Source: a virus. Taken from it: 64,000 bases of DNA. Below, piece by piece: positions 5,260 to 29,643 of this stretch (position 1 is its first letter; every line of letters starts with the position of its first letter). The position numbers and the translations under genes were made by a program. The notes under the pieces were generated by a model. It saw nothing but the letters and a program-made list of their open reading frames with translations. It was not told where the DNA came from and ran no database searches. The stretch covers positions 1-64,000 of IMG/VR virus record IMGVR_UViG_3300022173_000074. The stretch is one strand, 5' to 3'.

Positions 5260-5513
5260 CAATCGTTGGCGAGATACTAGACACCCTTAAGCGCCTCCCT
5301 GAATTCGATTGCGCGCGCTTGATCGTTTGCGATTGGGAATCGTGCGCCGCGCCTTCGCGCTGGATTGTTTCAATTCAGAGCGCGGGGCGCGTTGTCTTAG
5401 AGGCGCGCGGCGCTAGTGCTGATGCAGCGCTAGAGGCTGCACTCACTAAGGCGCAAGAGCTTGCAGGCGCCCGGCGCCAGCGCATTAGATCGAAGGCGGA
5501 TTTATTGGATTAG
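5256..5513 (+). CDS. hypothetical protein
   Basis: ORF with ATGA overlap to upstream gene. Confidence 0.45.
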   Translation: MTIVGEILDTLKRLPEFDCARLIVCDWESCAAPSRWIVSIQSAGRVVLEARGASADAALEAALTKAQELAGARRQRIRSKADLLD

Positions 5514-5715
5514 ATCGAAGCCGCGAAGCGCGGCGCTTCAGACAATCGAGCGCGATTCAGAAGAGGCTTAGGCCTGGCATGAGTCGTTAAAAATTCATGC
5601 AGAATCACGCATGGATTCTGACTGTCTGAATCCGCACGGATCGAAATAAGGCAGCGGCCGGCTGGCTGCAGCCCGATGCGTCCGGTCGCCGGCAAAAATC
5701 GAGATCGAGGGGCCT

Positions 5716-5815
5716 GGCCCCACCACCGGGGAAATCGGAACCCCCCACCGTTAGGGAAATCCATTGCTACCTACCACCGGGGAAATCGGACTAGCCCACC
5801 ACCAGGGAAATCCAG
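5716..5815. repeat. iteron-like array: 4 direct copies of CCACC(N3)GGGAAATC(C/G)(G)A spaced 22-29 bp
   Basis: Copies at about 5721, 5745, 5772, 5797, read directly. Hairpins upstream at 5590-5650 and a TTGACA-like hexamer downstream at 5830. Confidence 0.7.
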
Positions 5816-5894
5816 GGTCACGCCCAGGTTGACAGTCTGGCATGGGGTGTGCAATGCAGCGGACAGGGCAGGAAACAGTGCATTGGAGTGTATT

Positions 5895-6011
5895 ATGATG
5901 GAATTCTTATTTGGCGTTACCACTGGCGCTGTGCTGGTGCATTTCTTCCCGTCGCTGAACGTCCCGGTCAAAATGGCCGTGGATAAAATCAAGGAATGGA
6001 TGACAAACTAA
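5895..6011 (+). CDS. possible small hydrophobic peptide (MMEFLFGVTTGAVLVHFFPSL...)
   Basis: Short ORF after iteron region with GGAG upstream. The longer ORF 5676..6011 is rejected because it only translates the iterons. Confidence 0.25.
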   Translation: MMEFLFGVTTGAVLVHFFPSLNVPVKMAVDKIKEWMTN

Positions 6012-6256
6012 TGCGCAAGCAAGGTATTGCGATGATTGCGGCCGCCGCTGCACTGGCTATGGCTGGTGGCGGCGTGCCTATCGAACCACGGCGCGGTCGC
6101 ATGAAGCCGGCCGACCCCGAGAGCACAGGCGCTAAGCTCGCCAAGAGCTTCGCCCGTGTCATGGAGAAGCGCACACCGGCTGATGTGCTGCGCATCCAGA
6201 AGGCCGAAGAGAAGCGTCAGCGAAAGGCTGCACGCCGCCGCGAGATCGGCCAATGA
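5996..6256 (+). CDS. hypothetical protein (Ala-rich N-terminus, basic C-terminus)
   Basis: ORF. Confidence 0.4.
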   Translation: MDDKLMRKQGIAMIAAAAALAMAGGGVPIEPRRGRMKPADPESTGAKLAKSFARVMEKRTPADVLRIQKAEEKRQRKAARRREIGQ

Positions 6257-6702
6257 GCTTCATTCGACTATCTGTCCTTGCTCAAGCGGACCTCTACATC
6301 ACGAAGAATACGGGTGAAGATTTCGCGCATATCGAATGGAACAATAACGGCATCACACAGCATCTAGGACGCATCCGTGCGAACGAGGTCGTGGGCCTAA
6401 TTCAATTCCTCCAAAACGAATTTGCTCCAACGGTTTTGCCAAAATCGGATTTGCCGAATCGGAAGCCAGATCAATTTGGTTCTACGGATTCGGAAATTTT
6501 CGATTTCCATAAACGCTCCGAGATGGCCGCAGGCTTCGGTCAGTCCATCGATCCGTACGCTATGGTCGCCATGGCTATGCGTTGCGGACAGATGGAAGCT
6601 GCGCTGAAGTCGATCAAAGCTTACGCCGAGAACGCTGTCATGGGCGCGTGGCGCGGAACTGTTCAAGAGATGGCGGCACTAGGCTTGCAATCGAAATCCT
6701 AG
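6253..6702 (+). CDS. hypothetical protein
   Basis: ORF, contains internal copy of the CGGATTCGG/GGAAAT motif at 6475-6501. Confidence 0.4.
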   Translation: MSFIRLSVLAQADLYITKNTGEDFAHIEWNNNGITQHLGRIRANEVVGLIQFLQNEFAPTVLPKSDLPNRKPDQFGSTDSEIFDFHKRSEMAAGFGQSIDPYAMVAMAMRCGQMEAALKSIKAYAENAVMGAWRGTVQEMAALGLQSKS

Positions 6703-6716
6703 AATGAATTTCGTTC

Positions 6717-6743
6717 TACCGATTTGGCATTTCGCGAAATCGT
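6717..6743 (+). promoter_or_regulatory. recurrent motif copy (ctaCCGATTTGGcatttcgCGAAATCG) upstream of SPFH gene
   Basis: Related to iteron core TCCGATTTCC; inverted-repeat structure; about 20 bp before GAGGGAA RBS and ATG 6762. Confidence 0.45.
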
Positions 6744-6761
6744 AAACTTGAGGGAATACAC

Positions 6762-7697
6762 ATGCCGATTTCAGGTAACGCAGGCGGCGAAGACGAGAGC
6801 CGCGAACAACGGAGAGAGCGTATGATCGCTGAAGAAATGCAGAACCGAATGAAAGTAATCAGGCTCGCCGGTAAAGGCGCCGCCGGGATTGTCGCTGTGA
6901 TCGTGGCGCTGAACAGCTTCTACACTGTGAACCAATCCCAGCGCGGCATTCACACACGCATGGGCGCCATCGTCGGCGTCTCTGCACCAGGGATGCATTT
7001 CAAATTCCCGATCATCGACGGCGTGCGCAAGCTGAATGTCCGTACACATACGATCCAGTGGCAGAACGTGAACGGCCAAGACAGCCGCATGGAAACCTAC
7101 TCGAAGGACCAACAGCCCGCCGACATCGCCATGACCGTTACGTGGTCGCCGGCGCTTGACGATAAGTCGATTGTCGAACTCTACACGAAGTACGGTTCGA
7201 TCCAGGGCTTCGAGCAAGCTGTGCTGATCCCATCGGCGCAGGAAGCATTCAAGAACGTCTTCGGCGGCTACGACTCTGTCAACGCCATCCAGAAGCGGGC
7301 GCTGTTGAATGCGCAGACCAGCGGTGAAGTGGCCCGTATCACGAAGGGCAAACCGTTCCGACTTGAGAGCGTGCAAATTCAGGACATATCGTTCTCGAAT
7401 GCATATGAGCAAGCGGTCGAAGCGCGCATGACGGCGCAGGTTAACGTCGAAAAGAAAACGCAGGAAAAGATCACGTCCCAGATCGAAGCGGACATGATGG
7501 TGATCGACGCGGAAGCGAAAGCCAAAGCCGTCCGTCTGGCCGGTGACGCGGAAGCTGATGCGATCAAAGCCAAGGCGGATGCTATCGCCAGCAATGCCCG
7601 TCTGGTCGAATACACGGCCGCCCAGCGCTGGAACGGCGAGCTGCCGACTACCATGGTGCCCGGCGGCGCGTTGCCCTTCGTCAAGATCGGACAGTAA
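6762..7697 (+). CDS. SPFH/band-7 (prohibitin/HflC-like) domain protein
   Basis: N-terminal TM (GIVAVIVALNSFYTV), then QRGIHTRMG...PGMHFKFPIIDGVRK and VQIQDISFSNAYEQAVEARMTAQ, matching SPFH/PHB domain signatures; C-terminal Ala/Lys-rich coiled coil. Confidence 0.8.
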   Translation: MPISGNAGGEDESREQRRERMIAEEMQNRMKVIRLAGKGAAGIVAVIVALNSFYTVNQSQRGIHTRMGAIVGVSAPGMHFKFPIIDGVRKLNVRTHTIQWQNVNGQDSRMETYSKDQQPADIAMTVTWSPALDDKSIVELYTKYGSIQGFEQAVLIPSAQEAFKNVFGGYDSVNAIQKRALLNAQTSGEVARITKGKPFRLESVQIQDISFSNAYEQAVEARMTAQVNVEKKTQEKITSQIEADMMVIDAEAKAKAVRLAGDAEADAIKAKADAIASNARLVEYTAAQRWNGELPTTMVPGGALPFVKIGQ

Positions 7698-7710
7698 AAA
7701 CGAATTTTAT

Positions 7711-7741
7711 CCCACGGATTCGGATTTTTCGGATTCGTGGG
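7711..7741 (+). promoter_or_regulatory. recurrent motif copy (cccACGGATTCGGatttttCGGATTCGtggg) upstream of gene 7761
   Basis: Direct CGGATTCG repeats inside a cccacg/cgtggg inverted repeat; followed by GAGGGAAT RBS. Confidence 0.45.
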
Positions 7742-7760
7742 ATAAAGACGAGGGAATGAG

Positions 7761-8006
7761 ATGACGAAGATTGTAGAGCTGCATCCTGAAAAGCGTGCAG
7801 CGGAAGAACTAAACGCCGCCGCGACGGCCTCCGTTATGGCTGAATTTGATCGTATGATCCGACTGGTGGAGGACTCCACTAGCGGCCTCCACGGTCGCAC
7901 CGCGAACTCTATCATGCTGGTGGCGGCACAGCTTACGGTCGCTTCCATAACGGAACGGTCGAACATGAGAGTCGACTCCACTCTCAAAGACATGGGACAC
8001 ATCTAA
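7761..8006 (+). CDS. hypothetical protein
   Basis: ORF with strong RBS. Confidence 0.45.
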   Translation: MTKIVELHPEKRAAEELNAAATASVMAEFDRMIRLVEDSTSGLHGRTANSIMLVAAQLTVASITERSNMRVDSTLKDMGHI

Positions 8007-8398
8007 TGACCGGCAAAATGATCCTGAACGTCTCAGAGCTTGAGCTGTTGTACGCTTACGCTCTGCCTCACATGCGCCTCCCGACTGACAAGGCGCCCTT
8101 GGGCACCTTCCGTAGGCTCGTGGAGAAGGGTCTTGTGCGCGAAGGCGTCGGCAAGGCTGTGATGCCCATGACGATGGAAGAACTTCATATGTCCGGTGAC
8201 GAGACGCCCGAAGAATTCGAGGCGAAGCTGAAGCCCTATCTGATCGACACTCCGGGCTGGGTCATCACGAACAAGGCCATCGGTATTCTACTGTTGGTCG
8301 TCGATCCAGGGAACGAGAAAAAGGCCGAAGCCGTGATGCGGGCCTTCATCGCGGACGAGGACCCGGCTGGACCTTACGATAGCGCCACGAGGGCGTAA
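8006..8398 (+). CDS. hypothetical protein
   Basis: ORF, ATGA/TAATG coupling. Confidence 0.45.
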   Translation: MTGKMILNVSELELLYAYALPHMRLPTDKAPLGTFRRLVEKGLVREGVGKAVMPMTMEELHMSGDETPEEFEAKLKPYLIDTPGWVITNKAIGILLLVVDPGNEKKAEAVMRAFIADEDPAGPYDSATRA

Positions 8399-8685
8399 TG
8401 GACATCCGCCCGACACCCGCGCCACTGCCGCTCGCTGACCGCGACACCGCGCCTTTCTACGTGGTCATTAATTCGTTCCAGCATCCGTTCGAAGAAAAGC
8501 GTGCGAACGTCTATGTGAAGGAAGGAAACTTCTTCCGCTCGCAAGGCGGCTTGACAGACGACTGGGGTAAGAACTGGATCGGGATAGAAGCGAAAGACAT
8601 GAACGACGCCCGGCTGCGGGCGCACGCATCGGAAGGTACGGCATGCCCACGCTGGCATCTTCATCCAGAGAAAGATTACTCGTGA
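8398..8685 (+). CDS. hypothetical protein
   Basis: ORF. Confidence 0.4.
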   Translation: MDIRPTPAPLPLADRDTAPFYVVINSFQHPFEEKRANVYVKEGNFFRSQGGLTDDWGKNWIGIEAKDMNDARLRAHASEGTACPRWHLHPEKDYS

Positions 8686-8852
8686 GATATTCCGCGCCGG
8701 CTTCGCAGGTATTAGCTCAAACGATTTCGGCGGCACGGATGCTGCATGACTGGATCACACAAAGATTCGAGCCGGTTCTTGACGATGATGGGAAGCCCAC
8801 GGGCTATCACCGCGACAAGAAAACCGGCGAGGTCGTAACAATCGAGTATTGA
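8643..8852 (+). CDS. hypothetical protein (start uncertain)
   Basis: ORF overlapping upstream gene by about 40 bp. Confidence 0.3.
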   Translation: MPTLASSSRERLLVRYSAPASQVLAQTISAARMLHDWITQRFEPVLDDDGKPTGYHRDKKTGEVVTIEY

Positions 8853-8853
8853 A

Positions 8854-9162
8854 ATGGTGACTATGAAATGCGAAACGCTGATCGGCCCGTTGCGCCAGTC
8901 CACTGGCGTTGCGCCTCCGGTCGATCTATCCCCCGATCAAACGCAAACCGCGTTGACAGCCTGCATGATTCGTCAAGCCGAACGCGGCGAAGAAATATTC
9001 TACGGCGCTGTATGGAGGAAGATCGCTCGCACGGATTTGATGGACGACATCAGAACTTGGTCCAGCGATTGCAAGGCAGCACGATATGTCGGGAAGGCAA
9101 CTCGCGGCGCCCGGATCACGGACACTCACTTCTTTGTCATAGATTGCTACTCAGATGGTTAA
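8854..9162 (+). CDS. hypothetical protein
   Basis: ORF. Confidence 0.4.
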   Translation: MVTMKCETLIGPLRQSTGVAPPVDLSPDQTQTALTACMIRQAERGEEIFYGAVWRKIARTDLMDDIRTWSSDCKAARYVGKATRGARITDTHFFVIDCYSDG

Positions 9163-9934
9163 ACCGACCTTCATATGCCAACGCCACAGTTGCATCGACT
9201 GCCCGGACCCGAAGTGCGATCCCAGCCTATTCGGTGTGCCGGATGTCTATAGCAACCCTGTCGATTTCATCTGCGCATCATGGAAAGTCGGTGATGACGA
9301 AGTCCAGAATACAGACCAGCTCGAAGTCTACGAAGCGGCGTGCAAAGCCCACGGAGTCGAAGTTCACACTCACGGCATCCTCGCCGGAAAAGGCAGTCGC
9401 GGAAGCTCTATCGATGCACTTCGGGCTTACTGCGAGGCGGATGTTGCTCTCGAAAGAAAGCTTTACACCATGGGACACTCTCACGATCCGCGTCCGCCGC
9501 TACCCGCCTGGAAAAGAGCGATCAACTTTCTTCTACATCACACTTACTTCGGGCGTTGGTTCCCGATCTTCGGGCGCGCGCCGTACTTCAAAGACAGCAT
9601 CACCGTCCGAGGCACCGTCAGAGACATCAGCGAGTTCGACTACGAAACCCCACACCGCTGGCCTGAAGGCACCGGCAAAACGTGGGACCCGAACCCTTGG
9701 GCGCAGCGAGCAATAGCCGTGCCGAAGCAAACGCGAATCGTCCGCCGCTGCCGATGGATGCCGGAGAAGTACAAGGGTCAGAAGCTCTATTTCGCCATCG
9801 TCGATTGGGGCGACTCATTCCACAACTACGCGCATCTGTTTGAGACGAAACAGGAGTGTGATTTTATGGGCGCTCGCCCTAAAGCGCCATCACACAATCG
9901 CATCGTCTGCAAGGGTTCGGTCATTTTCAAGTGA
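9155..9934 (+). CDS. hypothetical protein (Cys-rich N-terminus)
   Basis: 259-aa ORF. Confidence 0.45.
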   Translation: MVKPTFICQRHSCIDCPDPKCDPSLFGVPDVYSNPVDFICASWKVGDDEVQNTDQLEVYEAACKAHGVEVHTHGILAGKGSRGSSIDALRAYCEADVALERKLYTMGHSHDPRPPLPAWKRAINFLLHHTYFGRWFPIFGRAPYFKDSITVRGTVRDISEFDYETPHRWPEGTGKTWDPNPWAQRAIAVPKQTRIVRRCRWMPEKYKGQKLYFAIVDWGDSFHNYAHLFETKQECDFMGARPKAPSHNRIVCKGSVIFK

Positions 9935-10542
9935 GGGTTCTGGTCGCGTGTGAGTTCTCCGGCGTCGTGCGCCGCGCCTTCCGAGAGCGCGGCCACACCG
10001 CGTACTCGTGCGACATCATCCCGTCCGAGGACAACAGCCCCTATCACATCCAGGAAGACGTTCTGAGCGTGCTGGACGAGGGCTGGGACCTTATGGTGGC
10101 CCATCCGCCCTGCACGCGGCTCTGCGCATCAGGGACGCGCTGGCTCAATAAGCCGCCGCCCGGTCGCACGGTCAAAGATATGTTCCGGGAGCTGCAACAG
10201 GCCGCCGACCTCTTCACGTTGCTCTACCATGCGCCGATCAAACACGTCGCCGTGGAGAACCCCATCATGCACAGCTATGGCCGGCTGGCGATGCCCACTG
10301 TGCCGCCCTATCGGCAGATCATACAGCCGTGGCAGCACGGGCACGGCGAGCTGAAGACGACGTGCCTGTGGCTGAAAGAACTTCCACTGCTACAGCACAG
10401 CAAGATAGTGGAAGGGCGCGAGATGCGAGTGCATCGGATGTCCGAGAAGCCTGACCGGGCGAAAGAGCGGGCGCGTACCTATACCGGGATCGCGGCGGCG
10501 ATGGCGAAGCAATGGGGCGATTATGTTTCACAAATGGATTAA
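9931..10542 (+). CDS. short C5-cytosine DNA methyltransferase-like protein (motifs I, IV, VI only)
   Basis: VLVACEFSGVV (FxGxG-like motif I), AHPPCTRLCASG (PC motif IV), VAVENP (ENV motif VI). Only 203 aa, so no obvious TRD or motifs IX/X. Confidence 0.5.
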   Translation: MRVLVACEFSGVVRRAFRERGHTAYSCDIIPSEDNSPYHIQEDVLSVLDEGWDLMVAHPPCTRLCASGTRWLNKPPPGRTVKDMFRELQQAADLFTLLYHAPIKHVAVENPIMHSYGRLAMPTVPPYRQIIQPWQHGHGELKTTCLWLKELPLLQHSKIVEGREMRVHRMSEKPDRAKERARTYTGIAAAMAKQWGDYVSQMD

Positions 10543-10883: not shown

Positions 10884-11066
10884 ATGACGGGTAATGGCGT
10901 AATCCTTACCGGCCGGCTCTACGCGGACAGACATGGTCAACTAAAAGATGACACATCGGTCTGGACCTCTTTAGTGCTTGACGGGCCGGATCGCTTCGGA
11001 GTAGTGACCACGCAGATGTCCAAATACCTCTGCGTATTTGTTTATAGGGAATGTGATGTCAACTAG
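10884..11066 (+). CDS. hypothetical small protein (start uncertain)
   Basis: ATG 10884 downstream of previous stop in frame of ORF 10761..11066. Confidence 0.2.
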   Translation: MTGNGVILTGRLYADRHGQLKDDTSVWTSLVLDGPDRFGVVTTQMSKYLCVFVYRECDVN

Positions 11067-12093
11067 TGTATTCGACTTCGCGGCGATCAATCGCACGATG
11101 AAGGACAAAGGCCTGGACCATGACGAGCCAGCGCCGCGCGCCGAAAAGCTCCCTTCGCAATTGCTCGAAGCGGTCGCCGAAAGTCTAGACATTTCCTACG
11201 CCAAGCTTCTGAAAGACTACAGAGGCGGTCTTGGAACGCGAGCGACCGGCGGCGTTGTCGGCGGCCCGCGTCCAGGCTACGGCGAAGGCCCGAACGGCTA
11301 TTGCTACAAAGGCACCTGGAACGCCTTCGACAACTATCTGGAAGACGACATGGTCGTATGCCCCGACCAGAGCGGCAATTCCGATGACGATGAATACTAT
11401 GCCTGCAAAACTTCGATCAACGGCGCGAAGCCCTGTCACACTCCGGCCTTCTGGCGCCCGATGACGCTCCGAGAAGTCGATCTTGTTCTTGGCCGGCCAA
11501 CCCGAAAGACCCTCCCCAAGCAACAGCCCAGCCAAGCGCAATACGATCCGTCTATGACCTGGAAAGGCATGTGGGATAAAACCGCAGTCTACAAAGCGGG
11601 CGACATCGTACATCACGACGGGGCGAAGTTCCGCTGTCTATCTGACAACGCCGGATATGAGCCAACGAAGGGCACATTCTGGCAGATGGAAGTTCAGCCA
11701 GTGTTGACGGCGACACAAAAGATGCAGATGCAAAATCGTTTGCTTCGTACCCCCACCGTGAAGGTTTCGTTTCCGCACCTGAAGCGCCCGAAACCTGTGG
11801 ATCGTGTGACGCAGCAAGATTGTCAGACGTATCTTTCGTCCACGGAATACGGCGAAGTGCTGAACATCGTGAAGGTGCCTTACACGAAGCGGTCTGATAC
11901 TTTGCATCGCCGCCTGCGCGAACTGTTCAACACGGTGCGCAAGAACCGTCAGCTTTATGCTGGCTACAGCGGACCCAAGACAGGCCGTTGGAACGGTAGC
12001 GGCGCCAACCCGATCCCACAGCCGAAGGTAGACGAGCCGAAGTCGAATCCAGGACCTTACAAACGCATCGATACCGATCTGTTCCGGTTCTAA
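11056..12093 (+). CDS. hypothetical protein
   Basis: Start at ATG 11056 (MSTSVFDF) with AGGGAA RBS. Confidence 0.5.
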   Translation: MSTSVFDFAAINRTMKDKGLDHDEPAPRAEKLPSQLLEAVAESLDISYAKLLKDYRGGLGTRATGGVVGGPRPGYGEGPNGYCYKGTWNAFDNYLEDDMVVCPDQSGNSDDDEYYACKTSINGAKPCHTPAFWRPMTLREVDLVLGRPTRKTLPKQQPSQAQYDPSMTWKGMWDKTAVYKAGDIVHHDGAKFRCLSDNAGYEPTKGTFWQMEVQPVLTATQKMQMQNRLLRTPTVKVSFPHLKRPKPVDRVTQQDCQTYLSSTEYGEVLNIVKVPYTKRSDTLHRRLRELFNTVRKNRQLYAGYSGPKTGRWNGSGANPIPQPKVDEPKSNPGPYKRIDTDLFRF

Positions 12094-12094
12094 C

Positions 12095-12526
12095 GTGAAG
12101 GAAGTATCGCCTAAAGAGGGGCCGCTCTGCGCGGCGGCGCGGGAGTGGCTCTCTCAGGCGATCATCCGTGAACGGTATATTTATTTCACCGGCGACATGA
12201 AGAAAGTCATGTCGTCGCCCGAGCAACGGATGACGATTGAACAGCGCGAACGCCACAACCGAAAGCGAGCCGCCGCCAAAGCCGCTGCGAAGGCCAAGGG
12301 TGAGAAGTACAAAGCGATACCACTGGTGGACGAGTTCGCCGCCATGCGGCCTGACGTGCTCGCGCTGATGGAAATGATGGAGTTGCACGAGCTGCATGGG
12401 CTGGTGCATCTCCGAACGATTGTTCTGCACGACGGCGACCGCGCGTACGAAGCGGTCATGCGCTTGCAGAGAAACGGATTGCGCAAGGTGCGCGAACGCT
12501 TTGGCGTAACGACTGGTGCGACATGA
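12095..12526 (+). CDS. hypothetical protein (Lys/Ala-rich central region)
   Basis: ORF; GTG start at 12095 or ATG 12197. Confidence 0.4.
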   Translation: MKEVSPKEGPLCAAAREWLSQAIIRERYIYFTGDMKKVMSSPEQRMTIEQRERHNRKRAAAKAAAKAKGEKYKAIPLVDEFAAMRPDVLALMEMMELHELHGLVHLRTIVLHDGDRAYEAVMRLQRNGLRKVRERFGVTTGAT

Positions 12527-13521
12527 CGGCTGTTAAATTCAATTCAGTGTGCAGCGGCATCGAAGCCGCCAGTCATGCCGTGGCGCCGTTAGGATGGAAG
12601 GCCGTGGCCTTCAGCGAGATCGAGCCGAACGCCTGCGCATTCCTCGCTGACCGATACCCGCACGTCCAGAACGTCGGAGACATGCTCGCCGTCGATTGGT
12701 CGCGGCCTCGCTACCATGCGAACGTGCTGATCGGTGGCACGCCATGCCAGAGCTTCTCCGTCCTGGGGGCGTGGCGTAAAGGGGATGGCGCCAAGGAAGT
12801 GCTTGGAGACAAGGACGACCGAGGCAAGCTCGCATATCATTTTATCGACATCGCGGACGAGTCCGACTGCGATTGGTTTCTCTGGGAGAACGTACCGAAT
12901 GTCACAAGCGCGAACGAAGGCAAGTTCTTCAAAAAGTGGCTCCGCAAAGCTAGGGAGCATGGGTTTAATGTCGGATGGCGCGTTCTCGATACCGAAGACT
13001 TCGGCCTTCCCGCGCTCCGCAAGAGGCTATACGCTGTCGGACATCGTGGACCGGCGGCAGAAATCGAGCGCGTACTCTTTCAACCAGGAAACACTAGGGG
13101 GCGTTCTCTACCGGCTGATGCGCAAATCCCTGGTTCAGGAAAGCGGCAAGATCGGCGCGACGGAATTGTTGGCGCGGATTCTATTGTTGTCTTTGACGCA
13201 GCCTCGATCAAACCTAGAGCAAGCAGCACAGCGTTCAATACATTCCTTAAAAGCCATGCAACCCGCGTCGGAGTTGCCTGGGGCGCGGGAGGACGCGGCG
13301 GACCTTACCGTGGGGAGCCGGGGTTTGTCAGGAAAGCCACTGCGGAAGAAGCTGAACTCGCTATGGGCTTTTCTCGTAGCTACACCGATGCCGGAGGGCT
13401 AGACGAGCGCCGCCGTCACGAGATGATCGGCAACAGTTTCTCGCCGGTCGTTATCAATGCGATCTGCGAAGGGATCGACGAATACTACGGAAGCGACTCG
13501 GCCTTCATGCGTAACGACTAA
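12523..13521 (+). CDS. C5-cytosine-specific DNA methyltransferase
   Basis: FNSVCSGIEAAS (motif I), GGTPCQSFSVLG (PCQ motif IV), WFLWENVPN (ENV motif VI), C-terminal GNSFS. Confidence 0.8.
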   Translation: MTAVKFNSVCSGIEAASHAVAPLGWKAVAFSEIEPNACAFLADRYPHVQNVGDMLAVDWSRPRYHANVLIGGTPCQSFSVLGAWRKGDGAKEVLGDKDDRGKLAYHFIDIADESDCDWFLWENVPNVTSANEGKFFKKWLRKAREHGFNVGWRVLDTEDFGLPALRKRLYAVGHRGPAAEIERVLFQPGNTRGRSLPADAQIPGSGKRQDRRDGIVGADSIVVFDAASIKPRASSTAFNTFLKSHATRVGVAWGAGGRGGPYRGEPGFVRKATAEEAELAMGFSRSYTDAGGLDERRRHEMIGNSFSPVVINAICEGIDEYYGSDSAFMRND

Positions 13522-16782: not shown

Positions 16783-16801
16783 AGCCCAGGTAAAAATTTT
16801 T

Positions 16802-16828
16802 TCACGGATTCCCATTTTACGGTTTCGC
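16802..16828 (+). promoter_or_regulatory. recurrent motif copy (tCACGGATTCCcattttACGGTTTCGc) upstream of gene 16851
   Basis: Same family as the motifs at 6717, 7711 and 6475. Confidence 0.4.
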
Positions 16829-16850
16829 TTTTTCTAGGATCAAAAATTCA

Positions 16851-17692: not shown

Positions 17693-19561
17693 ATGGCTGC
17701 AGCCGGTAAGAAAATCCCGTACAAAGAATGCCAGCGCATTGAGCGCTTTCTGAAGAAGAACAAAGGCAATCGCCGCGCCGCCGCTGAAGAGATGCAGGTG
17801 CCGATCACAACCCTGAAGGGCTGGATCGAGAAGGGCCGGCAGCAAGGGTTCGTGTTCAGTCCGCCGCAAGATTTGAAGACGCTAGAGCGCGTAACGAACG
17901 TCACTGAAGCCGAATGTATGGATGCCTGGGGCGTCTACGAACGCTACGGCTACAACGCGGCGGCCGCCGCAGAAGCGATGAACGTCCACATCGGGACCAT
18001 CGAAACCCGCGTCAAGAAAGCCGAACATAAGTACGGCATGCGCCGCCGAAATCTAGGTGTGCAGGACGCCCGCGATGCGGTGCCGCTGAAACGTCCGAAG
18101 AAGGGTGAAGTCAAACGCTATCTTCTGACAGCGGCGCAGAACAACACGAAAATTCACGAACCGACTTGGTTCAGTTTGTTGCAGCTCGCGGAGTATTACG
18201 GTGCAGAAGTCAAAGTCGCTACCTTCACCTACGCACCGCAAGACAGCGCCGGTTCCGAGAAGCGGAACAAAGAGCGCGCGTGGAAAGATCGCGGCCATAA
18301 GGTTGTGGACCGCTGGTACGATCATCATATTGAAGATCACATCTCCGACGCCTTTGAACAGCTCGCGCCCGGCCTCGTGTGGTGCGGTCATACCAACACT
18401 CTGCCGACCGCTGTTGATCCGCTGCGCGGCACCGAGAACCTGAACGGCCGGCACTCCGGCGTCTTCCCGCACACGCGGATGGAAATGCGGTCCATTGCGA
18501 CCTCGCCCGGCGAAGCGACTAAGTTCAACTGGACGACCGGCGCCGTCACTCTGCGAAACTACAAGCAGATGCGTGCCGGTATCGTCGCCGAGTTCTACCA
18601 TTGCTTCGGCGCTTTGCTTGTCGAAGTCGATGACGCTGGCAACTGGTGGTGCCGCCAATTGAACGCCACGAGTGAAGGCGTGATCTGCGACATCGATCTG
18701 TACTCTACCCCTGAAGGCGTCTTCGAGGGCGAGCCAGTGGAAGCGATCAAGTACGGCGACATCCATAAGGCCAACATCGATCCGGTCATCCAGGCGGCTA
18801 CCTGGGGCGAAGGCGGCATGGTAGACGTACTCCGTCCGAAGCGTCAGTTCTTGGACGATCTGTTGGACTTCGAGTCTGGCAGCCACCACAATCGCCGCGA
18901 CCCTCACAAAATGTACGAGCTGCAACACTTCGGACGCAACAGCGTGTGGAACGAAGTGTTGGACGCCGGCGCGTTCGTCGACTCCATTCACCGCGTCTAC
19001 CCTGACGGCACGGAGTCGGAAGAGATCGTCAACGACTCCAATCACGACCGCCATCTGGACCGCTGGCTGAAGGAAGTGCATTGGCACGAAGACTTATCGA
19101 ACGCACGGACCTTGCTTCAGTGCAACGATGCCTGGCTTAGCGCAATTGAGAACGGCGATGCGGATGAATTCGTTCCGCTCGAATGGCTCTGGCGCAAGAT
19201 GGGAGTCGCCAAGTCCGCGTTCGTTATGAACATCCGGTCAGAGCACAAGCGGAAGCTCTCCTACGTGATCTGCGCCGACAAGAGCGGCGGGATCGAAATG
19301 GCCCTGCACGGAGACTTAGGCCCGAATGGTTCTCGCGGCGGCCCGCGTAACCTGTCAAAGCTGGGGCAGAAGAACGTCATCGGCCACAGCCACTCGCCCG
19401 GCATCTTCGGCGGCACGTACGTTGCAGGTGTCACGGGCAAGATGCGGTTAGGCTATAATGTTGGCCCAGGTTCCTGGGGTCACGCGCATGTTGTGGTCTA
19501 CGCGAATGGTAAACGCCAAGTGATCTTGTTCTGGAACGGCAAGCCTTGGGCTGACAGATAG
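17693..19561 (+). CDS. large protein with two N-terminal HTH-like regions; C-terminal region has weak metallophosphoesterase-like motifs
   Basis: NRRAAAEEMQVPITTLKGWIEKG and NAAAAAEAMNVHIGTIETRVKKAE (sigma r4/Mor-like HTH); later YGDIHK, HGDLGPNG, IGHSHSPG, WGHAHVV. Confidence 0.4.
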   Translation: MAAAGKKIPYKECQRIERFLKKNKGNRRAAAEEMQVPITTLKGWIEKGRQQGFVFSPPQDLKTLERVTNVTEAECMDAWGVYERYGYNAAAAAEAMNVHIGTIETRVKKAEHKYGMRRRNLGVQDARDAVPLKRPKKGEVKRYLLTAAQNNTKIHEPTWFSLLQLAEYYGAEVKVATFTYAPQDSAGSEKRNKERAWKDRGHKVVDRWYDHHIEDHISDAFEQLAPGLVWCGHTNTLPTAVDPLRGTENLNGRHSGVFPHTRMEMRSIATSPGEATKFNWTTGAVTLRNYKQMRAGIVAEFYHCFGALLVEVDDAGNWWCRQLNATSEGVICDIDLYSTPEGVFEGEPVEAIKYGDIHKANIDPVIQAATWGEGGMVDVLRPKRQFLDDLLDFESGSHHNRRDPHKMYELQHFGRNSVWNEVLDAGAFVDSIHRVYPDGTESEEIVNDSNHDRHLDRWLKEVHWHEDLSNARTLLQCNDAWLSAIENGDADEFVPLEWLWRKMGVAKSAFVMNIRSEHKRKLSYVICADKSGGIEMALHGDLGPNGSRGGPRNLSKLGQKNVIGHSHSPGIFGGTYVAGVTGKMRLGYNVGPGSWGHAHVVVYANGKRQVILFWNGKPWADR

Positions 19562-21627: not shown

Positions 21628-21893
21628 TTCAGTTCTACCTACTGACTTATGCCGCCAGTTTCATGTTCATCTTTTTGAAGGTGATGCAAACGCTGAACTC
21701 TGTGTTCAAGCAATACATCTGGATCGTCCCTACCTCCATGCTGATCGCGTTCGCCGAGTGCTTCGTGGTGGTGAACCTCGCGCAGCATGGCTATCACCTA
21801 TCCATCGTGCTCGCCGTGGGCTTCGGCTCCGGCACCGGCGCCCTATCGGCATCGGTCTTGCATCGAATGATCTTCAAGGACACGAGCATATGA
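21618..21893 (+). CDS. small multi-pass membrane protein
   Basis: Three hydrophobic helices. Confidence 0.45.
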   Translation: MEIVQFYLLTYAASFMFIFLKVMQTLNSVFKQYIWIVPTSMLIAFAECFVVVNLAQHGYHLSIVLAVGFGSGTGALSASVLHRMIFKDTSI

Positions 21894-22597
21894 TCGACTT
21901 TCCCGACTCCCAGCATGACGTGATCTACGCTGACCCTGCGTGGCGCTTCCTGACGCGCTCCGATAAAGGACGCGGCAGATCACCGGACGCGCCGGTCACG
22001 CGCGCCGCTGGCCGCCGCAATCAGCCTGAGCGTCACTACCCGACTATGACTCTTGACGAGATCAAGGCGCTGCCGGTTGCCGACCTCGCGAACAAGGATT
22101 GCGTGTTGCTGATGTGGGTCGTCGATCCGATGCTCCCGCATGCGCTCGAAGTCGGCAAGGCTTGGGGCTTCACATACAAGACGGTCGGGTTCTATTGGGC
22201 CAAGCTCCGCAAGGCGCCGATGAAGCCGGGCCGCGACACGCACCTGGACGAAGAGCGCAAGATGTTCCCCATGGGCACAGGCTACTGGACGCGGGCGAAC
22301 CCCGAGCAATGCTTTCTCTTCACGCGCGGGCGGCCGGAGCGCAAGAGTGCCGGTGTCGCCAAGCTGATCGCCATGGAGGACGAGCCGGGATCGCGGTTGA
22401 TCGTCAGCCCTCGCCGCGAGCACAGCCGCAAACCAGACGAAGCCTATGACCGGATCGACCAGCTCTGCGGCGCCGACAAATCGAAGATCGAGCTGTTCGC
22501 CCGGCAGAGCCGCGAGGGCTGGACATCCTGGGGGAACGACACCCGGAAGTTCGACGCGCCCAAAGCGCCCCGGTCGAAGGCGGATTTGCTGGGGTAA
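21890..22597 (+). CDS. MT-A70 family N6-adenine DNA methyltransferase
   Basis: VIYADPAWRF (DPPW-like), LLMWVVDP, GRPERKSAG, REHSRKPDEAYDRI. Confidence 0.75.
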   Translation: MIDFPDSQHDVIYADPAWRFLTRSDKGRGRSPDAPVTRAAGRRNQPERHYPTMTLDEIKALPVADLANKDCVLLMWVVDPMLPHALEVGKAWGFTYKTVGFYWAKLRKAPMKPGRDTHLDEERKMFPMGTGYWTRANPEQCFLFTRGRPERKSAGVAKLIAMEDEPGSRLIVSPRREHSRKPDEAYDRIDQLCGADKSKIELFARQSREGWTSWGNDTRKFDAPKAPRSKADLLG

Positions 22598-24633: not shown

Positions 24634-24892
24634 CTGCAATACTCCGATATTTTTCTGCGCGAACCTTAGCCGCCTTGGCTTCCGTTTGCGCGATGTCCGA
24701 TAACTTCTTTTGTGTGGCAAGTGCCGCGTCGAATTTAATCTGGTTGTCTTTGTTCGTTTGGACCGTGGCCTTCAAATCCTTTTGAGATTGTTCAAGCTTG
24801 GTTTGTAACCCCGCGATCTGGAAGTGCTGGACGGTAGCAAGACCGCCAACCACAAGGACCGCCGCCCCGAGGGCGAGGATAAAATACTTCAT
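24551..24892 (-). CDS. i-spanin (Rz-like)
   Basis: N-terminal TM (YFILALGAAVLVVGGLA) then coiled-coil periplasmic domain; TAATG overlap with endolysin stop. Confidence 0.6.
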   Translation of the reverse strand: MKYFILALGAAVLVVGGLATVQHFQIAGLQTKLEQSQKDLKATVQTNKDNQIKFDAALATQKKLSDIAQTEAKAAKVRAEKYRSIADAIHNSPDTGEGVPDVVRSTVDRLWDH

Positions 24893-25764
24893 TAAGCGCC
24901 TGCCTTTCGACGAAGTTCCAGACGACCGCTGATCGCCAGATAACCGCCGACGCAAACCGCGACGACCATCAGAGCGAAGGCACCGAACGCCCATGGGTTA
25001 TTGATGTTGCTGAGCAGTGGACCGGCAGCCGTCGCCACACCGGCTACGCCACCAGCGCCGCCGATCAGAGTACCGATGGTGACAGGGTCCTTGTGCAGCT
25101 TCGCGCCATCGGGCTTCGCAGCGGCTTCCTGCGCCGGCGTTGCCGTAGCGGCTGGGGTTGCATGCACAACGGCGGCGACCTTCAGCGCTTGGAGGAACGC
25201 AGCATGGTAGGCGGCGATGACTTGCGCCTTATCCTGTACGTTCACGATGAAGCGGGCGCCGATTGGATCGTTGATCGATGCGTTGAAGTAGCGCGGCAGA
25301 TCGCGTGACGGAGTGTAGAGGCCTTCGATCATCCCCTCCACGAGGACTTGAACGGAGATCGCCGGGTCCAGCGCGAGGTCTGGGTTCTTGTCGAGATCGA
25401 CGCCGAGCCGTTCGCCGACGCGCTTATAGTTCGTGCGCCACGTTAGCTGAACATGACCGCGACCGTAGTATACAAAACCAGTTTCAGGATCGGCCACGCC
25501 GTACTTGCGGTGCGCGACGACTTTCCGGGCGCTTGCATCCGAACCAGCAAATCCCTCGCGAACCGCAACCATGCGGCTGCCGGTTTCGTGGAACGAGGTT
25601 GCAAGGATATAAGCGAGCCAGCGAACATCCTTGTCCGCGTGCTTGGCTTCCCAATAGTCCAGGATCGCGTCGGTGCCATCGACTTGCTGTTGCGTAAGAC
25701 GATTCCCAAACGGGACTTCACGAGCCTTCGCATAGAATACTTTCCGGTCGAAAAGAATGGTCAT
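24892..25764 (-). CDS. glycoside hydrolase family 19 endolysin with C-terminal hydrophobic/TM extension
   Basis: ATSFHETG, YYGRGHVQLTWRTNY, GVDLDKNPDLALDP match GH19 chitinase/lysozyme motifs; C-terminal AFGAFALMVVAVCVGGYLAI helix. Confidence 0.75.
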   Translation of the reverse strand: MTILFDRKVFYAKAREVPFGNRLTQQQVDGTDAILDYWEAKHADKDVRWLAYILATSFHETGSRMVAVREGFAGSDASARKVVAHRKYGVADPETGFVYYGRGHVQLTWRTNYKRVGERLGVDLDKNPDLALDPAISVQVLVEGMIEGLYTPSRDLPRYFNASINDPIGARFIVNVQDKAQVIAAYHAAFLQALKVAAVVHATPAATATPAQEAAAKPDGAKLHKDPVTIGTLIGGAGGVAGVATAAGPLLSNINNPWAFGAFALMVVAVCVGGYLAISGRLELRRKAGA

Positions 25765-26270: not shown

Positions 26271-27815
26271 CTACCGGGCGGTGACGATGAATTGCATCCA
26301 GTTCTTTTGAATGCCCTTTGTCATATTCTTTGATCCGCCAGAGTGTTGCTGGAACTTCACCGTAACGTAATCGCCGGCGTCGATCTTGACACGTCCCGAA
26401 CAGTTGAAGGCGAACACCGTGTTGGCGGCGGCCGATGCTTCAGGGATCGGTTCGGCGATAGCCTTCCGCAGCACGTTGTTCACGTATATTTCGAACACCG
26501 TGAAGAAGTTATTCGCGCTGGTTGACATCCACACGAGGGCTGTGATGTCCACATAGCAATCGATGCCCGGTGAAATCTTGCCGTCGCTGGTGTTGTAGAT
26601 GCTGGCGCTATCCCACTCTTCGGCGTCATAGATCATAACAGTAGGTGTCGCCGAAGGGACCGAGATGTCGTTCGCCGACAGATAAACGGAGCCGGTAGCG
26701 TACTCGCCACCGCCGCCGCCAGTGGGCGGATCGACCCACTCTGTATCATAGTCTGTCCCGCTGTTTTTGGCGAGAAGCTGGCCGGTCGTTCCCGCCGCCG
26801 GAACGCCCACGCCATCGTCGCCGTCGACTCCGTTCGTTCCTTTGTCTCCGTAAGGGACCCAGGTTATTTTCACAGGGAGGTTGTTCGATAGTGCGCCGCC
26901 GCTGGCTAGAACGGCCACGTTGAACACGTCATACGATCCGCTGTCCGTCATCGTCGTGTGCCGTGCTATGATATAGTTGGCGGGGTTCGCCGGATCGAGA
27001 ATGAAGATTATTCCTTTGTTCGTGTTCGTGCTGTCGTCCCATGCATTGATGAAGCCCGCGAGCGAGCGTCCATCGTTGTCGGTTTCGTTGAAAGATATTT
27101 GCGTGATGGACGCGAACGTGCCGTTGTCCGCCGCAACTTTTCCTGTGCCCGGATTCCCTGGAGTCGTGGTCGTGTTCCACAGGTAGTTAAAGCCGAAGTC
27201 TAGGCCGTCTGAACCGTCAGCTCCATCGGAGCCGTTGCTTCCGTTCGTTCCTTTTTCAGCCATCAGCGACCAGTAGGTTGGCTCCGCGTTCGGAACTTTG
27301 TTCGTGCCAGCCTGGATCGAGATGTAAGCGTTGCCGTTGTAGAGCACGCCGTCACGAAGCGCGTACGCGGTGCCGGAGTTCCAAGCGCCGCGCCACAGCA
27401 TGCCCACAGGTCCGGTGTCGCCGGTCAGGCCGGTGTCGCCTTGCGGACCCGCAACGCCACCCGGAACCCATCCGCTCTCCGGCGTCCACCACAAGGATTT
27501 GCCGGCCGCGATTGCACCACGGAAAAGAACGCGCACGTTGGCGCCGTCAAGGATATAAACCTGGAAGGTTTGCTGGACAGAGTCCGCGTTGAAGATGTTC
27601 AGGAACTTGATCTGGTTCTGCGTAGTCCCGCCGCCCGGCACCGGGACGAGTTCGATGGTGGCGTCACCCGTGAACTCGCCGTTTACTTCGAGCGGAGCGA
27701 AGCCGTCGCTTCCGACATCGATAGCCACATAGCTGACCGAGAAGACCGGCGCAGTGGTGGTATGATCGGCGCCCATAACGGCGCGTAGGGATTTGTCAGT
27801 CGTGTCAAGAATCAT
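26271..27815 (-). CDS. tail fibre protein with collagen-like Gly-X-Y tract and CBM5/12-like repeats
   Basis: GPQGDTGLTGDTGPVGMLWRGAWNSGTAYALRDGVLYNGNAYISIQAGTN..P...YWSL. Confidence 0.6.
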   Translation of the reverse strand: MILDTTDKSLRAVMGADHTTTAPVFSVSYVAIDVGSDGFAPLEVNGEFTGDATIELVPVPGGGTTQNQIKFLNIFNADSVQQTFQVYILDGANVRVLFRGAIAAGKSLWWTPESGWVPGGVAGPQGDTGLTGDTGPVGMLWRGAWNSGTAYALRDGVLYNGNAYISIQAGTNKVPNAEPTYWSLMAEKGTNGSNGSDGADGSDGLDFGFNYLWNTTTTPGNPGTGKVAADNGTFASITQISFNETDNDGRSLAGFINAWDDSTNTNKGIIFILDPANPANYIIARHTTMTDSGSYDVFNVAVLASGGALSNNLPVKITWVPYGDKGTNGVDGDDGVGVPAAGTTGQLLAKNSGTDYDTEWVDPPTGGGGGEYATGSVYLSANDISVPSATPTVMIYDAEEWDSASIYNTSDGKISPGIDCYVDITALVWMSTSANNFFTVFEIYVNNVLRKAIAEPIPEASAAANTVFAFNCSGRVKIDAGDYVTVKFQQHSGGSKNMTKGIQKNWMQFIVTAR

Positions 27816-27816
27816 A

Positions 27817-29643
27817 TCAGAACCCCAAGCTCACGCGGATCATAACCTGCGCCATGTTAGTGCCTCCACCCCCGCCGCCAGAGTCACCCTTCTGAGCGAG
27901 TAGTTGCCAGAAAGAGCCGGAGGTCGGCGGGGAGTGGTTTGTGCCGTCTGCAATCGCGATCCAGGACGAGCCGCTGTGCGAAACGGCGTCCTTAATGACA
28001 TAAGCGGTCGCGGATGACCAGGGACCGCGCCAGACCATGCCTGGAGGGCCTTCAGGACCCGTCGCGCCGTCAGTACCGTCCACGCCATCGTCGCCATCCA
28101 CGCCCGCAGCCCCGGTCGCGCCTTTAGCTGCGACAAGCTCCCAGTACGTTGGCTCCGTCAGCGGGTCTTTGTTCGTGCTGTTCAGGATCGCAATGTACGT
28201 GCTGCCGCTGCGCGACACGACATCCGCGTTGTCTGCGTCCACCGTGTAAGCGGGGCCGCCTGACCATTCGCCTTGCCATACCATGCCTGCGCCGGGCGGG
28301 CCTTGGATTCCGTCCTCGCCCTGGATACCCTGGATGCCCTGGTCGCCGCGTTTGGCTACGAGTTCCCACCATGCGGTTTCAATCGAAGGATCGCGGCCTG
28401 AGTTCGCGTTTTGCTTCGAGATGTAAGACGAACCGCTTGGCGTCCAGAAGATCACGTCAAGTTCGTCGAAGGTTTCCGCGTCGAAAGTTCCGCCGCTGGT
28501 CCATGCACCTTTCCAGACGCCGATCAGTCCGGGGTCGCCCTGCGGGCCGGGAGGTCCGTCAGGTCCAGGCACAGTTGAGTCCGCGCCCGGATCGCCTTGC
28601 GGTCCAGGGTCGCCGTCATCGCCTTTGGCTCCGGTCGCGCCGGTGTCGCCTTTGTTGGCAAGCGCATTCCAGATACCCGGCGTTCCTGGGGCTTGGTTGA
28701 TGTTGTCCGCGACTGCTATGTAGGACCCGCCTTGATACGCGACTCCATCATCGACTTCGTAACTTGTTCCGCTGTCCCAGTTGCCTATCCAGTTCAATCC
28801 GCGAGGGCCGGTCGGTCCTGGATCACCTTCAGGGCCGGCCGGTCCTTCTGGACCTACGGGGCCGGCAGACATCAGCGACCAGTCAAACGGGTTTTCGTCT
28901 GGCTGGCTGTTGATGTTTTCGGTGATGCAGATGTAAGAGCTGCCGGTCGATGCGAGGTAGACTCCTTCGTTGATCGCATAAACAACGTCGTCTTCCCACT
29001 CGCCTTTCCAGACCAAACCGATGTCGCCGGTGTCGCCTTTCTCTGCGACTAGGTTCCAGTGTTCGATATACTCGTTCGGCGGCTCATTCGTGTTAGTGAA
29101 GATACAAATCCACGAGCGACCGAGGTAGCCCACCACGTCGGTTTCGCGATACTCGCGGTCATCTTCCCACGGTCCTTGCCAGACCATGCCTGGGTCTCCT
29201 TGATCGCCCTTCTCGCCGCCGACCGCGAACAGCGACCAGTCGGAAGGGTTCTCGTCTGGCTGATTGCCCAGGTTATCATCGCTCAAAGAAATGTATGCGT
29301 CTTTGTCGAAGCGAACCGCGTCGTTCTCCGCATAGTTCACCGCGCCCGACCACGTTCCGGTCCACACGATAGTCGTGCCGCCGCCTCCGCCGCCCGTGCT
29401 GAACGCGGACCACGTAGTCAGATCGCTGCCGAGAATCCAGATCAGTCCGTCGTCTTGCGTCACGACGATCATGCCCGCGCTTCGGCGCTTCACAGGGATC
29501 GCGTCACGCACCGCGCCGGATGCAACTTCGCGCCAACCGCCCTTGCCGTATTCAGCGAAGTGCGTGGCGTAGTCGTCGCTCGTGGTGAACGGAACGACCG
29601 GCGCTGCGATGTTAGTACCGAGGATGACTGCCATTAGGACCAC
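27817..29643 (-). CDS. collagen-like repeat tail fibre protein
   Basis: Multiple Gly-X-Y runs (GPVGPEGPAGPEGDPGPTGPRG; GDTGATGAKGDDGDPGPQGDPG) alternating with about 7 repeats of W.G.W....Y...D.V...G..YI....N..P...W.L.A. Confidence 0.7.
   Translation of the reverse strand: MVLMAVILGTNIAAPVVPFTTSDDYATHFAEYGKGGWREVASGAVRDAIPVKRRSAGMIVVTQDDGLIWILGSDLTTWSAFSTGGGGGGTTIVWTGTWSGAVNYAENDAVRFDKDAYISLSDDNLGNQPDENPSDWSLFAVGGEKGDQGDPGMVWQGPWEDDREYRETDVVGYLGRSWICIFTNTNEPPNEYIEHWNLVAEKGDTGDIGLVWKGEWEDDVVYAINEGVYLASTGSSYICITENINSQPDENPFDWSLMSAGPVGPEGPAGPEGDPGPTGPRGLNWIGNWDSGTSYEVDDGVAYQGGSYIAVADNINQAPGTPGIWNALANKGDTGATGAKGDDGDPGPQGDPGADSTVPGPDGPPGPQGDPGLIGVWKGAWTSGGTFDAETFDELDVIFWTPSGSSYISKQNANSGRDPSIETAWWELVAKRGDQGIQGIQGEDGIQGPPGAGMVWQGEWSGGPAYTVDADNADVVSRSGSTYIAILNSTNKDPLTEPTYWELVAAKGATGAAGVDGDDGVDGTDGATGPEGPPGMVWRGPWSSATAYVIKDAVSHSGSSWIAIADGTNHSPPTSGSFWQLLAQKGDSGGGGGGTNMAQVMIRVSLGF

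Follow-up and report, generated by a model that had tools for sequence, protein, structure and literature searches.

A phage-encoded prohibitin-type SPFH membrane protein and its possible role as a periplasm-facing scaffold

Introduction

What might a bacteriophage gain from encoding an SPFH protein? SPFH cages, such as those of prohibitin, HflK/C, stomatin, flotillin and erlin, have only recently been resolved structurally, and their roles in bacteria are still vague. The question is raised by a gene at positions 6762..7697 of IMG/VR virus record IMGVR_UViG_3300022173_000074, of which we analysed positions 1 to 64,000 (one strand of 64,000 nucleotides, called the window throughout). On the evidence set out below, and with a probability of roughly 0.55, we favour the reading that its product would be an early-made, homo-oligomeric, periplasm-facing SPFH scaffold that encloses a client in the host inner membrane, with FtsH as the leading candidate.

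Phage genes with an SPFH or Band 7 domain have been noted since at least 2006, when they were seen in T4-like phages (PMC1524935), and a link to FtsH and lysogeny has been speculated on several times (PMC4936722, PMC10269572, PMC8540360), although one of these papers itself points out that strictly lytic phages carry SPFH genes (PMC8540360). Why phage genomes contain such genes "remains unclear", according to a 2026 paper (PMC13239085). An earlier first-pass annotation of the window had raised modulation of FtsH, membrane proteases or superinfection as possible roles. Both the genes and the FtsH idea are already in the literature, and the gene described here is a divergent addition to the family, one that contributes a contrast between a putative uncleaved anchor and a lipoprotein and no new principle.

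Results

Domain architecture and predicted structure

The gene is an open reading frame (ORF) of 311 residues that runs on the + strand from an ATG at 6762 to a TAA at 7695-7697, exactly the interval given in an earlier first-pass annotation of the window. Profile searches recovered the SPFH domain with statistics far beyond chance: Pfam Band_7 (PF01145) matched residues 55-235 at E=7.3e-30, with 104.8 bits against a cut-off of 23.6 and an alignment that spans profile positions 2-168 of 176, and the PHROG 200 profile matched residues 26-309 at E=2.1e-49. Kyte-Doolittle windows of 19 residues exceeded 1.6 at residues 32-53 only, which leaves a single hydrophobic segment. An AlphaFold2 (AF2) model built from a 50-sequence alignment reached a mean predicted local distance difference test score (pLDDT) of 86.6 and consists of a helix at residues 10-51, an alpha/beta SPFH body at 53-211, a long helix at 213-277, a short helix at 281-288 and a low-confidence tail. 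By Foldseek, the top PDB matches of this model were PHB1/2, HflK/C, stomatin and erlin (E from 1e-15 to 1e-12), the alignments to the full-length PHB1/2 and HflK/C chains covered 250-300 columns at E~1e-15, and the probability was 1.00 for PHB, HflK/C, stomatin, erlin and flotillin. The band-7/PHB domain, the N-terminal transmembrane segment (residues ~36-56) and the C-terminal coiled coil (the long helix at 213-277) that the first-pass annotation had read from the sequence are all borne out by these profile, hydropathy and fold comparisons, and the gene encodes a prohibitin-type SPFH membrane protein. Its parts are as follows.

6762..7697, + strand: complete prohibitin-family SPFH gene (ORF list, sequence, Pfam Band_7, PHROG 200)
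6750..6757, + strand: Shine-Dalgarno-like GAGGGAAT, 5 nucleotides 5' of the ATG at 6762 (sequence)
6762..6866, + strand: residues 1-35, charged N-terminal segment, helical from residue 10 in the AF2 model and probably cytoplasmic
6867..6929, + strand: residues ~36-56, single hydrophobic segment GKGAAGIVAVIVALNSFYTV, putative signal-anchor (hydropathy)
6918..7394, + strand: residues 53-211, alpha/beta SPFH (Band 7) body (Pfam, AF2 with pLDDT >90, Foldseek)
7398..7625, + strand: residues 213-288, long Ala/Glu/Lys-rich helix (213-277) and short helix (281-288) (AF2, composition)
7626..7694, + strand: residues 289-311, C-terminal tail (50-sequence alignment; pLDDT <50 in the monomer model)

The helical region (residues 213-288) is 26% Ala and 30% charged, and the sequence alignments to PHB1 and PHB2 extend through it; in the model its helices would be the equivalent of the CC1/CC2 wall helices of SPFH cages. 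The protein keeps all the residues that are invariant across the phage and bacterial members of the family, and seven invariant positions of the 50-sequence alignment (W290, G292, L294, P295, M298, P300 and P305) fall within the last 23 residues. Since this tail is so conserved and yet falls below a pLDDT of 50 in the monomer model, we infer that it may take on order only once the protein oligomerises or binds a partner, and it can be likened to the cap-forming C-termini of HflK/C and PHB. A conserved tail of low confidence is consistent with assembly into a ring or cage, without being proof of it.

The Shine-Dalgarno-like octamer GAGGGAAT also precedes the ATG at 7761, and its five copies in the window, against 2.0 expected, amount to a weak enrichment. 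The third-position GC of the SPFH gene (0.73) resembles the values for well-supported genes elsewhere in the window, which argues that the gene is not a recent, unadapted import. By tblastn and a family hidden Markov model in all six frames, the 64-kb window holds one SPFH copy, and the identical protein (P0001) is on record once, on a JGI metagenome contig of 68,795 bp.

Placement among the SPFH subgroups

Given a fold shared by several families, we asked which of them the phage protein resembles most. Against solved structures, the single sequence ranked PHB2 first (1.5e-10), followed by PHB1, HflK and HflC, and the 50-sequence family profile ranked PHB2 first again (3.7e-23), ahead of PHB1 and HflC (~1e-19), HflK (1e-12), QmcA (3e-8) and stomatin (1e-6); PHB2 was thus the top match by both routes, erlin included among those behind it. 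The HflC match in sequence was limited to the first ~60-90 residues. With the equivalog models of NCBIfam, the protein scored 40.3 bits for HflC (TIGR01932, cut-off 134.4) and 29.7 bits for HflK (TIGR01933, cut-off 159.4). An HflK/HflC orthologue was rejected because both cut-offs were missed and the gene is single-copy. The type encoded in an operon with NfeD (QmcA-YbbJ, YqiK-YqiJ) was set aside as well, as the flanking ORFs, none of which had a Pfam or PHROG match, include no adjoining NfeD gene. A component of a defence system was rejected in turn, the models of PADLOC-DB giving no match at E<=0.01 for the SPFH protein or for four neighbours. Taken together, the missed HflK/C cut-offs, the lone SPFH gene, the lack of an NfeD partner and the empty PADLOC search place the gene in the stand-alone group annotated as "prohibitin family protein".

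Membrane anchor and topology

The hydrophobic segment ends, in the alignment, at a conserved SFYTV that opens the SPFH domain, and it is at this junction that the family divides. In a sister clade (P0010-P0034, 48-55% identity), about 22 sequences with a single Cys carry L-x-[GAS]-C right before SFYTV, 18 of them by the strict pattern, for example those encoded at 8001-8900 of locus L005 and 7010-7915 of locus L009; the members of this clade whose context was checked are phage-borne. This lipobox is the reason for the label "lipoprotein" on PHROG 200. For the window protein that label was rejected, because the protein contains no cysteine at all, Leu-Asn standing in place of the Gly-Cys, and the lipobox is missing from its closest clade (P0002-P0009) too. 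The phage SPFH family thus appears, from these alignments, to switch between attachment as a lipoprotein and attachment by a signal-anchor.

The lipobox also bears on orientation. A protein that carries one must have its SPFH domain exported, and because the lipobox of the sister clade lies at the very end of the window protein's anchor, it argues for an SPFH domain that faces the periplasm in the window protein as well. HflK/C have their SPFH domains on the periplasmic side, and those of prohibitin face the intermembrane space. Four Lys/Arg residues lie in the 18 residues before the anchor and two after it, a bias that agrees weakly with a periplasmic orientation. The closest homologues have a charged N-terminal segment of similar length and different sequence. 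The most likely arrangement, judged by these features, would be a signal-anchor that stays uncleaved and an SPFH domain on the periplasmic side.

Relatives and mobility of the gene

The closest relatives of the protein, at 62-71% identity, all come from metagenomic contigs, and the closest homologue in a cultured phage is 37% identical. A large protein collection held 792 relatives at E<=1e-10, 149 IMG/VR contigs carry one, and 61 GenBank phage records carry a homologue at 28-38% identity, among them rhizobiophages of ~115 kb, Rak2/GAP32-like jumbo phages, Skarpretter and the Agrobacterium OLIVR phages. There they are labelled "prohibitin family protein", "band 7 protein", "SPFH domain containing protein", "membrane protease family protein" or "lipoprotein". 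Among viral proteins, the closest in fold was one of Rhizobium phage Pasto (E=1e-25). Rhizobium phage RHph_X2_30, the closest cultured relative by terminase, is not among the 11 Rhizobium-phage records with a homologue.

Six of the seven genomic contexts inspected were phage-like (L001, L005, L007, L008, L009 and L010), L001 with a terminase of a different type from that in the window, and the seventh, in Aestuariivirga litoralis (P0085, 41% identity), was a bacterial chromosome with housekeeping neighbours. One of the six (L010; GCA_040319165.1, JAMYNQ010000020.1, 118 kb) is filed as Mesorhizobium sp. and resembles a phage genome, having the size and the genes (RtcB, DNA ligase, HNH and many small ORFs) of the ~115-kb rhizobiophages.

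When the ORFs within +/-4 kb were clustered in 88 loci, the SPFH gene was the only one to recur widely; the other clusters were shadow ORFs inside the SPFH gene and small membrane proteins specific to subclades. BLAST of the early proteins of the window against the related loci likewise found SPFH as the sole common gene. A conserved partner gene, NfeD or any other, was rejected on the strength of this clustering, the BLAST comparison and the empty Pfam and PHROG scans of the neighbours. As no other gene recurs across loci, the SPFH gene looks like an independent, mobile accessory gene.

The next true neighbour families are two kinds of small single-pass membrane protein, neither of which is present in the window. 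In some subclades a conserved protein of ~55-65 residues is encoded directly 5' of SPFH (13 loci), and in others one of ~76 residues is encoded 3' of it (8 loci). Such proteins, seen for example at L035 3795-3986, L026 4786-5028 and similar IMG/VR loci, are possible lineage-specific partners.

One homologue has been detected as a protein. Tandem mass spectrometry (MS/MS) of purified phage CBB identified CBB_29 (34% identity) from 8 peptides that cover 30% of it, and its annotation as "structural protein" goes back to this detection. Its gene (L091) lies within the 22-kb terminal repeat of this jumbo phage, so that each CBB genome has two copies. The detection shows that the homologue is made in quantity during infection, and its presence in phage preparations more likely reflects membrane that co-purified than a structural role.

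An iteron-like motif around the gene

The first-pass annotation had also noted a recurrent motif upstream of the gene, and this was found again. An element of ~45 nucleotides, made of two to four units of ~15 nucleotides with the consensus ~TTTTnCGGATTYGG, occurs five times in the early block (the plus-strand block described below), always on the + strand, and one copy ends 10 nucleotides 5' of the SPFH ATG.

6410-6460, + strand: motif copy inside the ORF called at 6253..6702 (repeat search, nhmmer, leave-one-out, TRF)
6464-6513, + strand: motif copy in tandem with the one at 6410-6460, inside the same ORF called at 6253..6702
6701-6752, + strand: motif copy with palindrome ATTTCGCGAAAT, ending 10 nucleotides 5' of the SPFH ATG (nhmmer E=2.5e-8; recovered at E=0.016 when left out)
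7694-7746, + strand: motif copy starting from the SPFH stop codon and ending 15 nucleotides 5' of the ATG at 7761 (nhmmer E=1.4e-11; E=1e-6 when left out)
16784-16837, + strand: fifth, more distant motif copy, ending 14 nucleotides 5' of the ATG at 16851 (84% identity to the copy at 7713)

The copies were located independently by a search for direct repeats, by Tandem Repeats Finder (TRF; period 14-15) and by nhmmer. In leave-one-out models, four of them were recovered as the best non-training match (E from 1e-6 to 0.016) and the fifth weakly (E=0.83); a 24-nucleotide pattern search that supports the fifth gave 2 matches against 0.03 expected. Three copies end 10-15 nucleotides before start codons, and four of the five bracket the SPFH gene, which suggests that this gene and the next are regulated as a small unit.

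Whether the motif acts as DNA or as RNA was judged from its folding. The stretch 7705-7747 forms a hairpin of 20 bp at -27 kcal/mol (z=-5.3; 200 shuffles gave nothing as stable); no U-tract follows, and the terminator scan did not call it. The upstream copy (6701-6752) folds modestly (z=-2.75) and the remaining copies no better than shuffles. An Rfam search over 5400-8000 gave no credible match, and the motif is absent from the related loci L001-L010. A conserved RNA structure was rejected, as only 7705-7747 folds strongly and Rfam gave nothing credible. The inconsistent folding, the empty Rfam search and the absence from related loci make a site at the DNA level (an operator, a promoter or an iteron) more likely than a conserved RNA.

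The 149-residue ORF at 6253-6702 (+ strand) contains the first two copies where the sequence is locally AT-rich, has a third-position GC of 0.57 and no family match, and may be over-called. An in-frame ATG near 6523, ~16 nucleotides after the second copy, could be the true start of a product of ~59 residues. Further upstream, 5514-5900 is gene-poor, the ORFs called across it being unconvincing, and contains a 45-nucleotide direct repeat (5719-5763 and 5770-5814, 82% identical, spaced by 51 nucleotides) rich in CCACC...GGGAAATC.

The phage genome and the position of the gene

The window holds genes for terminase, portal, protease, capsid, tape measure, tail, endolysin, DNA polymerase and helicase, and by this gene content it represents the genome of a tailed phage, a siphovirus. 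It is organised in two blocks of opposite strand, to which several modification genes belong.

1-24 kb, + strand: block of mostly small ORFs without a known family, holding the SPFH gene
~24-64 kb, - strand: block with, in order, endolysin, tail fibres, tail proteins, 1,298-residue tape measure, major head protein, head protease, portal, large and small terminase, methyltransferases, helicase and DNA polymerase
24892-25764, - strand: endolysin
9931-10542, 12523-13521 and 21758-22597, + strand: three distinct DNA methyltransferase genes in the early block
58904-60042, - strand: two tandem methyltransferase-like genes between small terminase and helicase
58287-58907: sialyltransferase-like ORF between small terminase and helicase

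Besides its three DNA methyltransferases, the plus-strand block holds a MazG-like enzyme and a "DNA transfer protein" like A1 of T5. It is probably the early or host-takeover region, the timing of expression being read from gene order only. The large terminase shares 52% identity with its counterpart in Rhizobium phage RHph_X2_30 and ~48% with those of Ruegeria DSS3-P1-like phages; these relatives suggest an alphaproteobacterial host, which we consider probable. A megablast search of 5500-9500 against GenBank phages gave no match, and the region thus has no close DNA relative among cultured phages. No integrase, repressor or CII-like gene was found among the ~60 ORFs scanned in the window, beyond which ~4.8 kb of the contig remain uncovered.

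Some further genes deserve mention. The T5 A1 homologue (17693-19561, + strand, 622 residues; PHROG 1745, E=3e-152) is present alongside a terminase of the DSS3-P1/RHph_X2_30 kind, and proteins like it are widespread in phages of Rhodobacter, Dinoroseobacter and Agrobacterium. The repertoire of modification genes is unusually heavy for a genome of ~69 kb. A 351-residue ORF of the early block (11038-12093, + strand) weakly resembles tail-fibre repeats (PHROG 5073, E=7e-7), the family of the genuine fibre genes on the opposite strand (26271-29643).

Discussion

That unrelated phage lineages keep a single-gene SPFH protein with its invariant residues intact implies some benefit during infection. 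In the scheme that we favour, the phage would make a stand-alone scaffold of the prohibitin family inside the infected cell, probably early. The short charged N-terminus would stay in the cytoplasm, the hydrophobic segment would serve as an uncleaved signal-anchor, and the SPFH domain and the helices would face the periplasm, as in HflK/C and in prohibitin on its intermembrane-space side. A homo-oligomeric ring or dome could then fence off a patch of the inner membrane. The least certain step is what would be fenced in: presumably a host inner-membrane protein, with FtsH as the leading candidate, since FtsH-type AAA proteases are caged by both HflK/C and prohibitin, the closest of the characterised families. 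Such caging would shift the set of membrane or phage proteins that are degraded in the infected cell. As no lysogeny genes were found among the ORFs scanned, a benefit, if any, would lie in lytic growth and not in a lysis/lysogeny decision of the CII type.

Several points weigh against this scheme. Oligomerisation, topology and interaction would all be carried over by homology, and with the HflC and HflK cut-offs missed, binding to FtsH is not transferable by orthology. The positive-inside signal is weak, and because the window protein lacks the lipobox, its orientation is extrapolated from the sister clade. Deletions of bacterial SPFH genes are often without phenotype (PMC13086221), and our search of the literature for a tested function of a phage SPFH protein returned genome-annotation remarks only; an apparent mention of prohibitin in the CRISPRi-ART paper proved to be "prohibiting".

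One alternative is superinfection exclusion, in which an early, periplasm-facing SPFH lattice on the inner membrane would alter or shield those parts of the membrane on which DNA translocation by other phages depends, and so protect the infected cell from secondary infection. The gene does lie in the probable early block beside genes of host-takeover and anti-restriction type, it is scattered as an accessory gene over unrelated phages in the manner typical of competition genes, and small single-pass membrane proteins flank it in some subclades. The proteins of the sister clade are exported lipoproteins, as are several proteins known to act in exclusion, such as Llp of T5 and Cor. To our knowledge, however, no SPFH protein has an exclusion role, the PADLOC search revealed no similarity to known exclusion or defence proteins, and the literature searched gave no experimental hint, so that we regard this explanation as unlikely, if the best placed of the alternatives.

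A scaffold might instead act on the membrane itself, keeping it intact and energised until the holin fires, whether by buffering membrane stress in the manner of flotillin or PspA, by blunting abortive-infection effectors that target the membrane or by restraining the phage's own membrane proteins. Two papers tie bacterial SPFH proteins to membrane-stress responses (PMC8581546, PMC10434171), the family is found chiefly in large virulent phages whose infection cycles are long (jumbo phages, T4-like phages and ~115-kb rhizobiophages), and CBB_29 is abundant enough late in infection to appear in phage preparations. The gene is not close to the lysis cassette, however, with the endolysin on the opposite strand, and its sequence points to no specific effector or holin; we therefore rank stabilisation of the membrane or timing of lysis just behind exclusion, and doubt it about as much.

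Where papers speculate on phage SPFH genes, they usually turn to control of lysogeny (PMC4936722, PMC10269572, PMC8540360): a mimic of HflC/HflK would tune the degradation of a CII-like activator by FtsH and so bias the choice between lysis and lysogeny. The fold is indeed related to HflK/C, but the HflK and HflC thresholds were missed, this phage has its own DNA polymerase and helicase, and many carriers are strictly virulent (PMC8540360; jumbo phages). Moreover, as the scanned ORFs (the ~4.8 kb beyond the window apart) include neither an integrase nor a repressor or CII-like gene, the logic of lambda CII has no visible target here, and we consider this explanation very improbable. Equally improbable is a protein of the virion, structural or injected rather than an intracellular membrane scaffold, since the finding of CBB_29 in purified phage is readily put down to contamination by membrane vesicles, as is likely for an integral-membrane or lipoprotein SPFH protein, the gene lies in the block of small genes on the strand opposite the structural module, and we know of no virion role for the SPFH fold in tailed phages.

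Setting these alternatives beside the scaffold reading, we put forward tentatively, and with less assurance than that reading, the broader notion that an early, homo-oligomeric, periplasmic SPFH cage would let a virulent phage capture a host machine, FtsH or another, or block competing phages. If true, a cage role would be the first function assigned to the widespread phage prohibitin family of PHROG 200, and the bracketing iteron-like motif would single out the SPFH gene as belonging to a small early unit under its own regulation. A homo-oligomeric phage version of small size, with burst size, lysis timing or exclusion as a clear readout, could in addition provide a handle on the prohibitin cages of bacteria.

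Comparison with known SPFH systems

The nearest systems are the phage proteins of PHROG 200 themselves, represented by those of RHph_X66, RHEph10, Pasto, GAP32, CBB (CBB_29) and Skarpretter, which are 31-38% identical over ~84% of the length. They share with the window protein its size, the succession of anchor, SPFH domain, helix and W-NG-LP-TMVPG tail, and the status of an isolated accessory gene. They differ in that PHROG 200 is labelled "lipoprotein" and a sister clade has a lipobox, whereas the window protein is free of Cys and would keep an uncleaved anchor. The Aestuariivirga litoralis protein (P0085) is 41% identical, has all the invariant residues and is likewise encoded by a single gene, without a pair of the hflK/hflC type; its gene is chromosomal, whereas that in the window is phage-borne.

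Among the bacterial systems, QmcA-YbbJ and YqiK-YqiJ share the SPFH fold and a ring-forming architecture with the phage protein, but QmcA is a much weaker match to the family profile than PHB2 (3e-8 versus 3.7e-23). QmcA and YqiK face the cytoplasm. HflK/HflC-FtsH of E. coli, the model for an SPFH cage that restricts access to FtsH, has the same fold and the periplasm-facing topology that the phage protein probably has; it differs in its equivalog models, which the phage protein misses by ~130 bits (HflK) and ~95 bits (HflC), and in having paired genes against the single one of the phage.

The closest parallel among solved structures is PHB1/PHB2, the best match by sequence, by family profile and by fold. 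The eukaryotic prohibitins reside in the mitochondrial inner membrane, face the intermembrane space and cage the m-AAA protease, which is of the FtsH type, and they resemble the phage protein in their succession of N-terminal anchor, SPFH body, wall helix and C-terminal segment. They are ~21-25% identical to it, and whereas PHB1/PHB2, like HflK/C, is a hetero-oligomer encoded by two genes, in its case an obligate one of two paralogues, the phage has a single gene.

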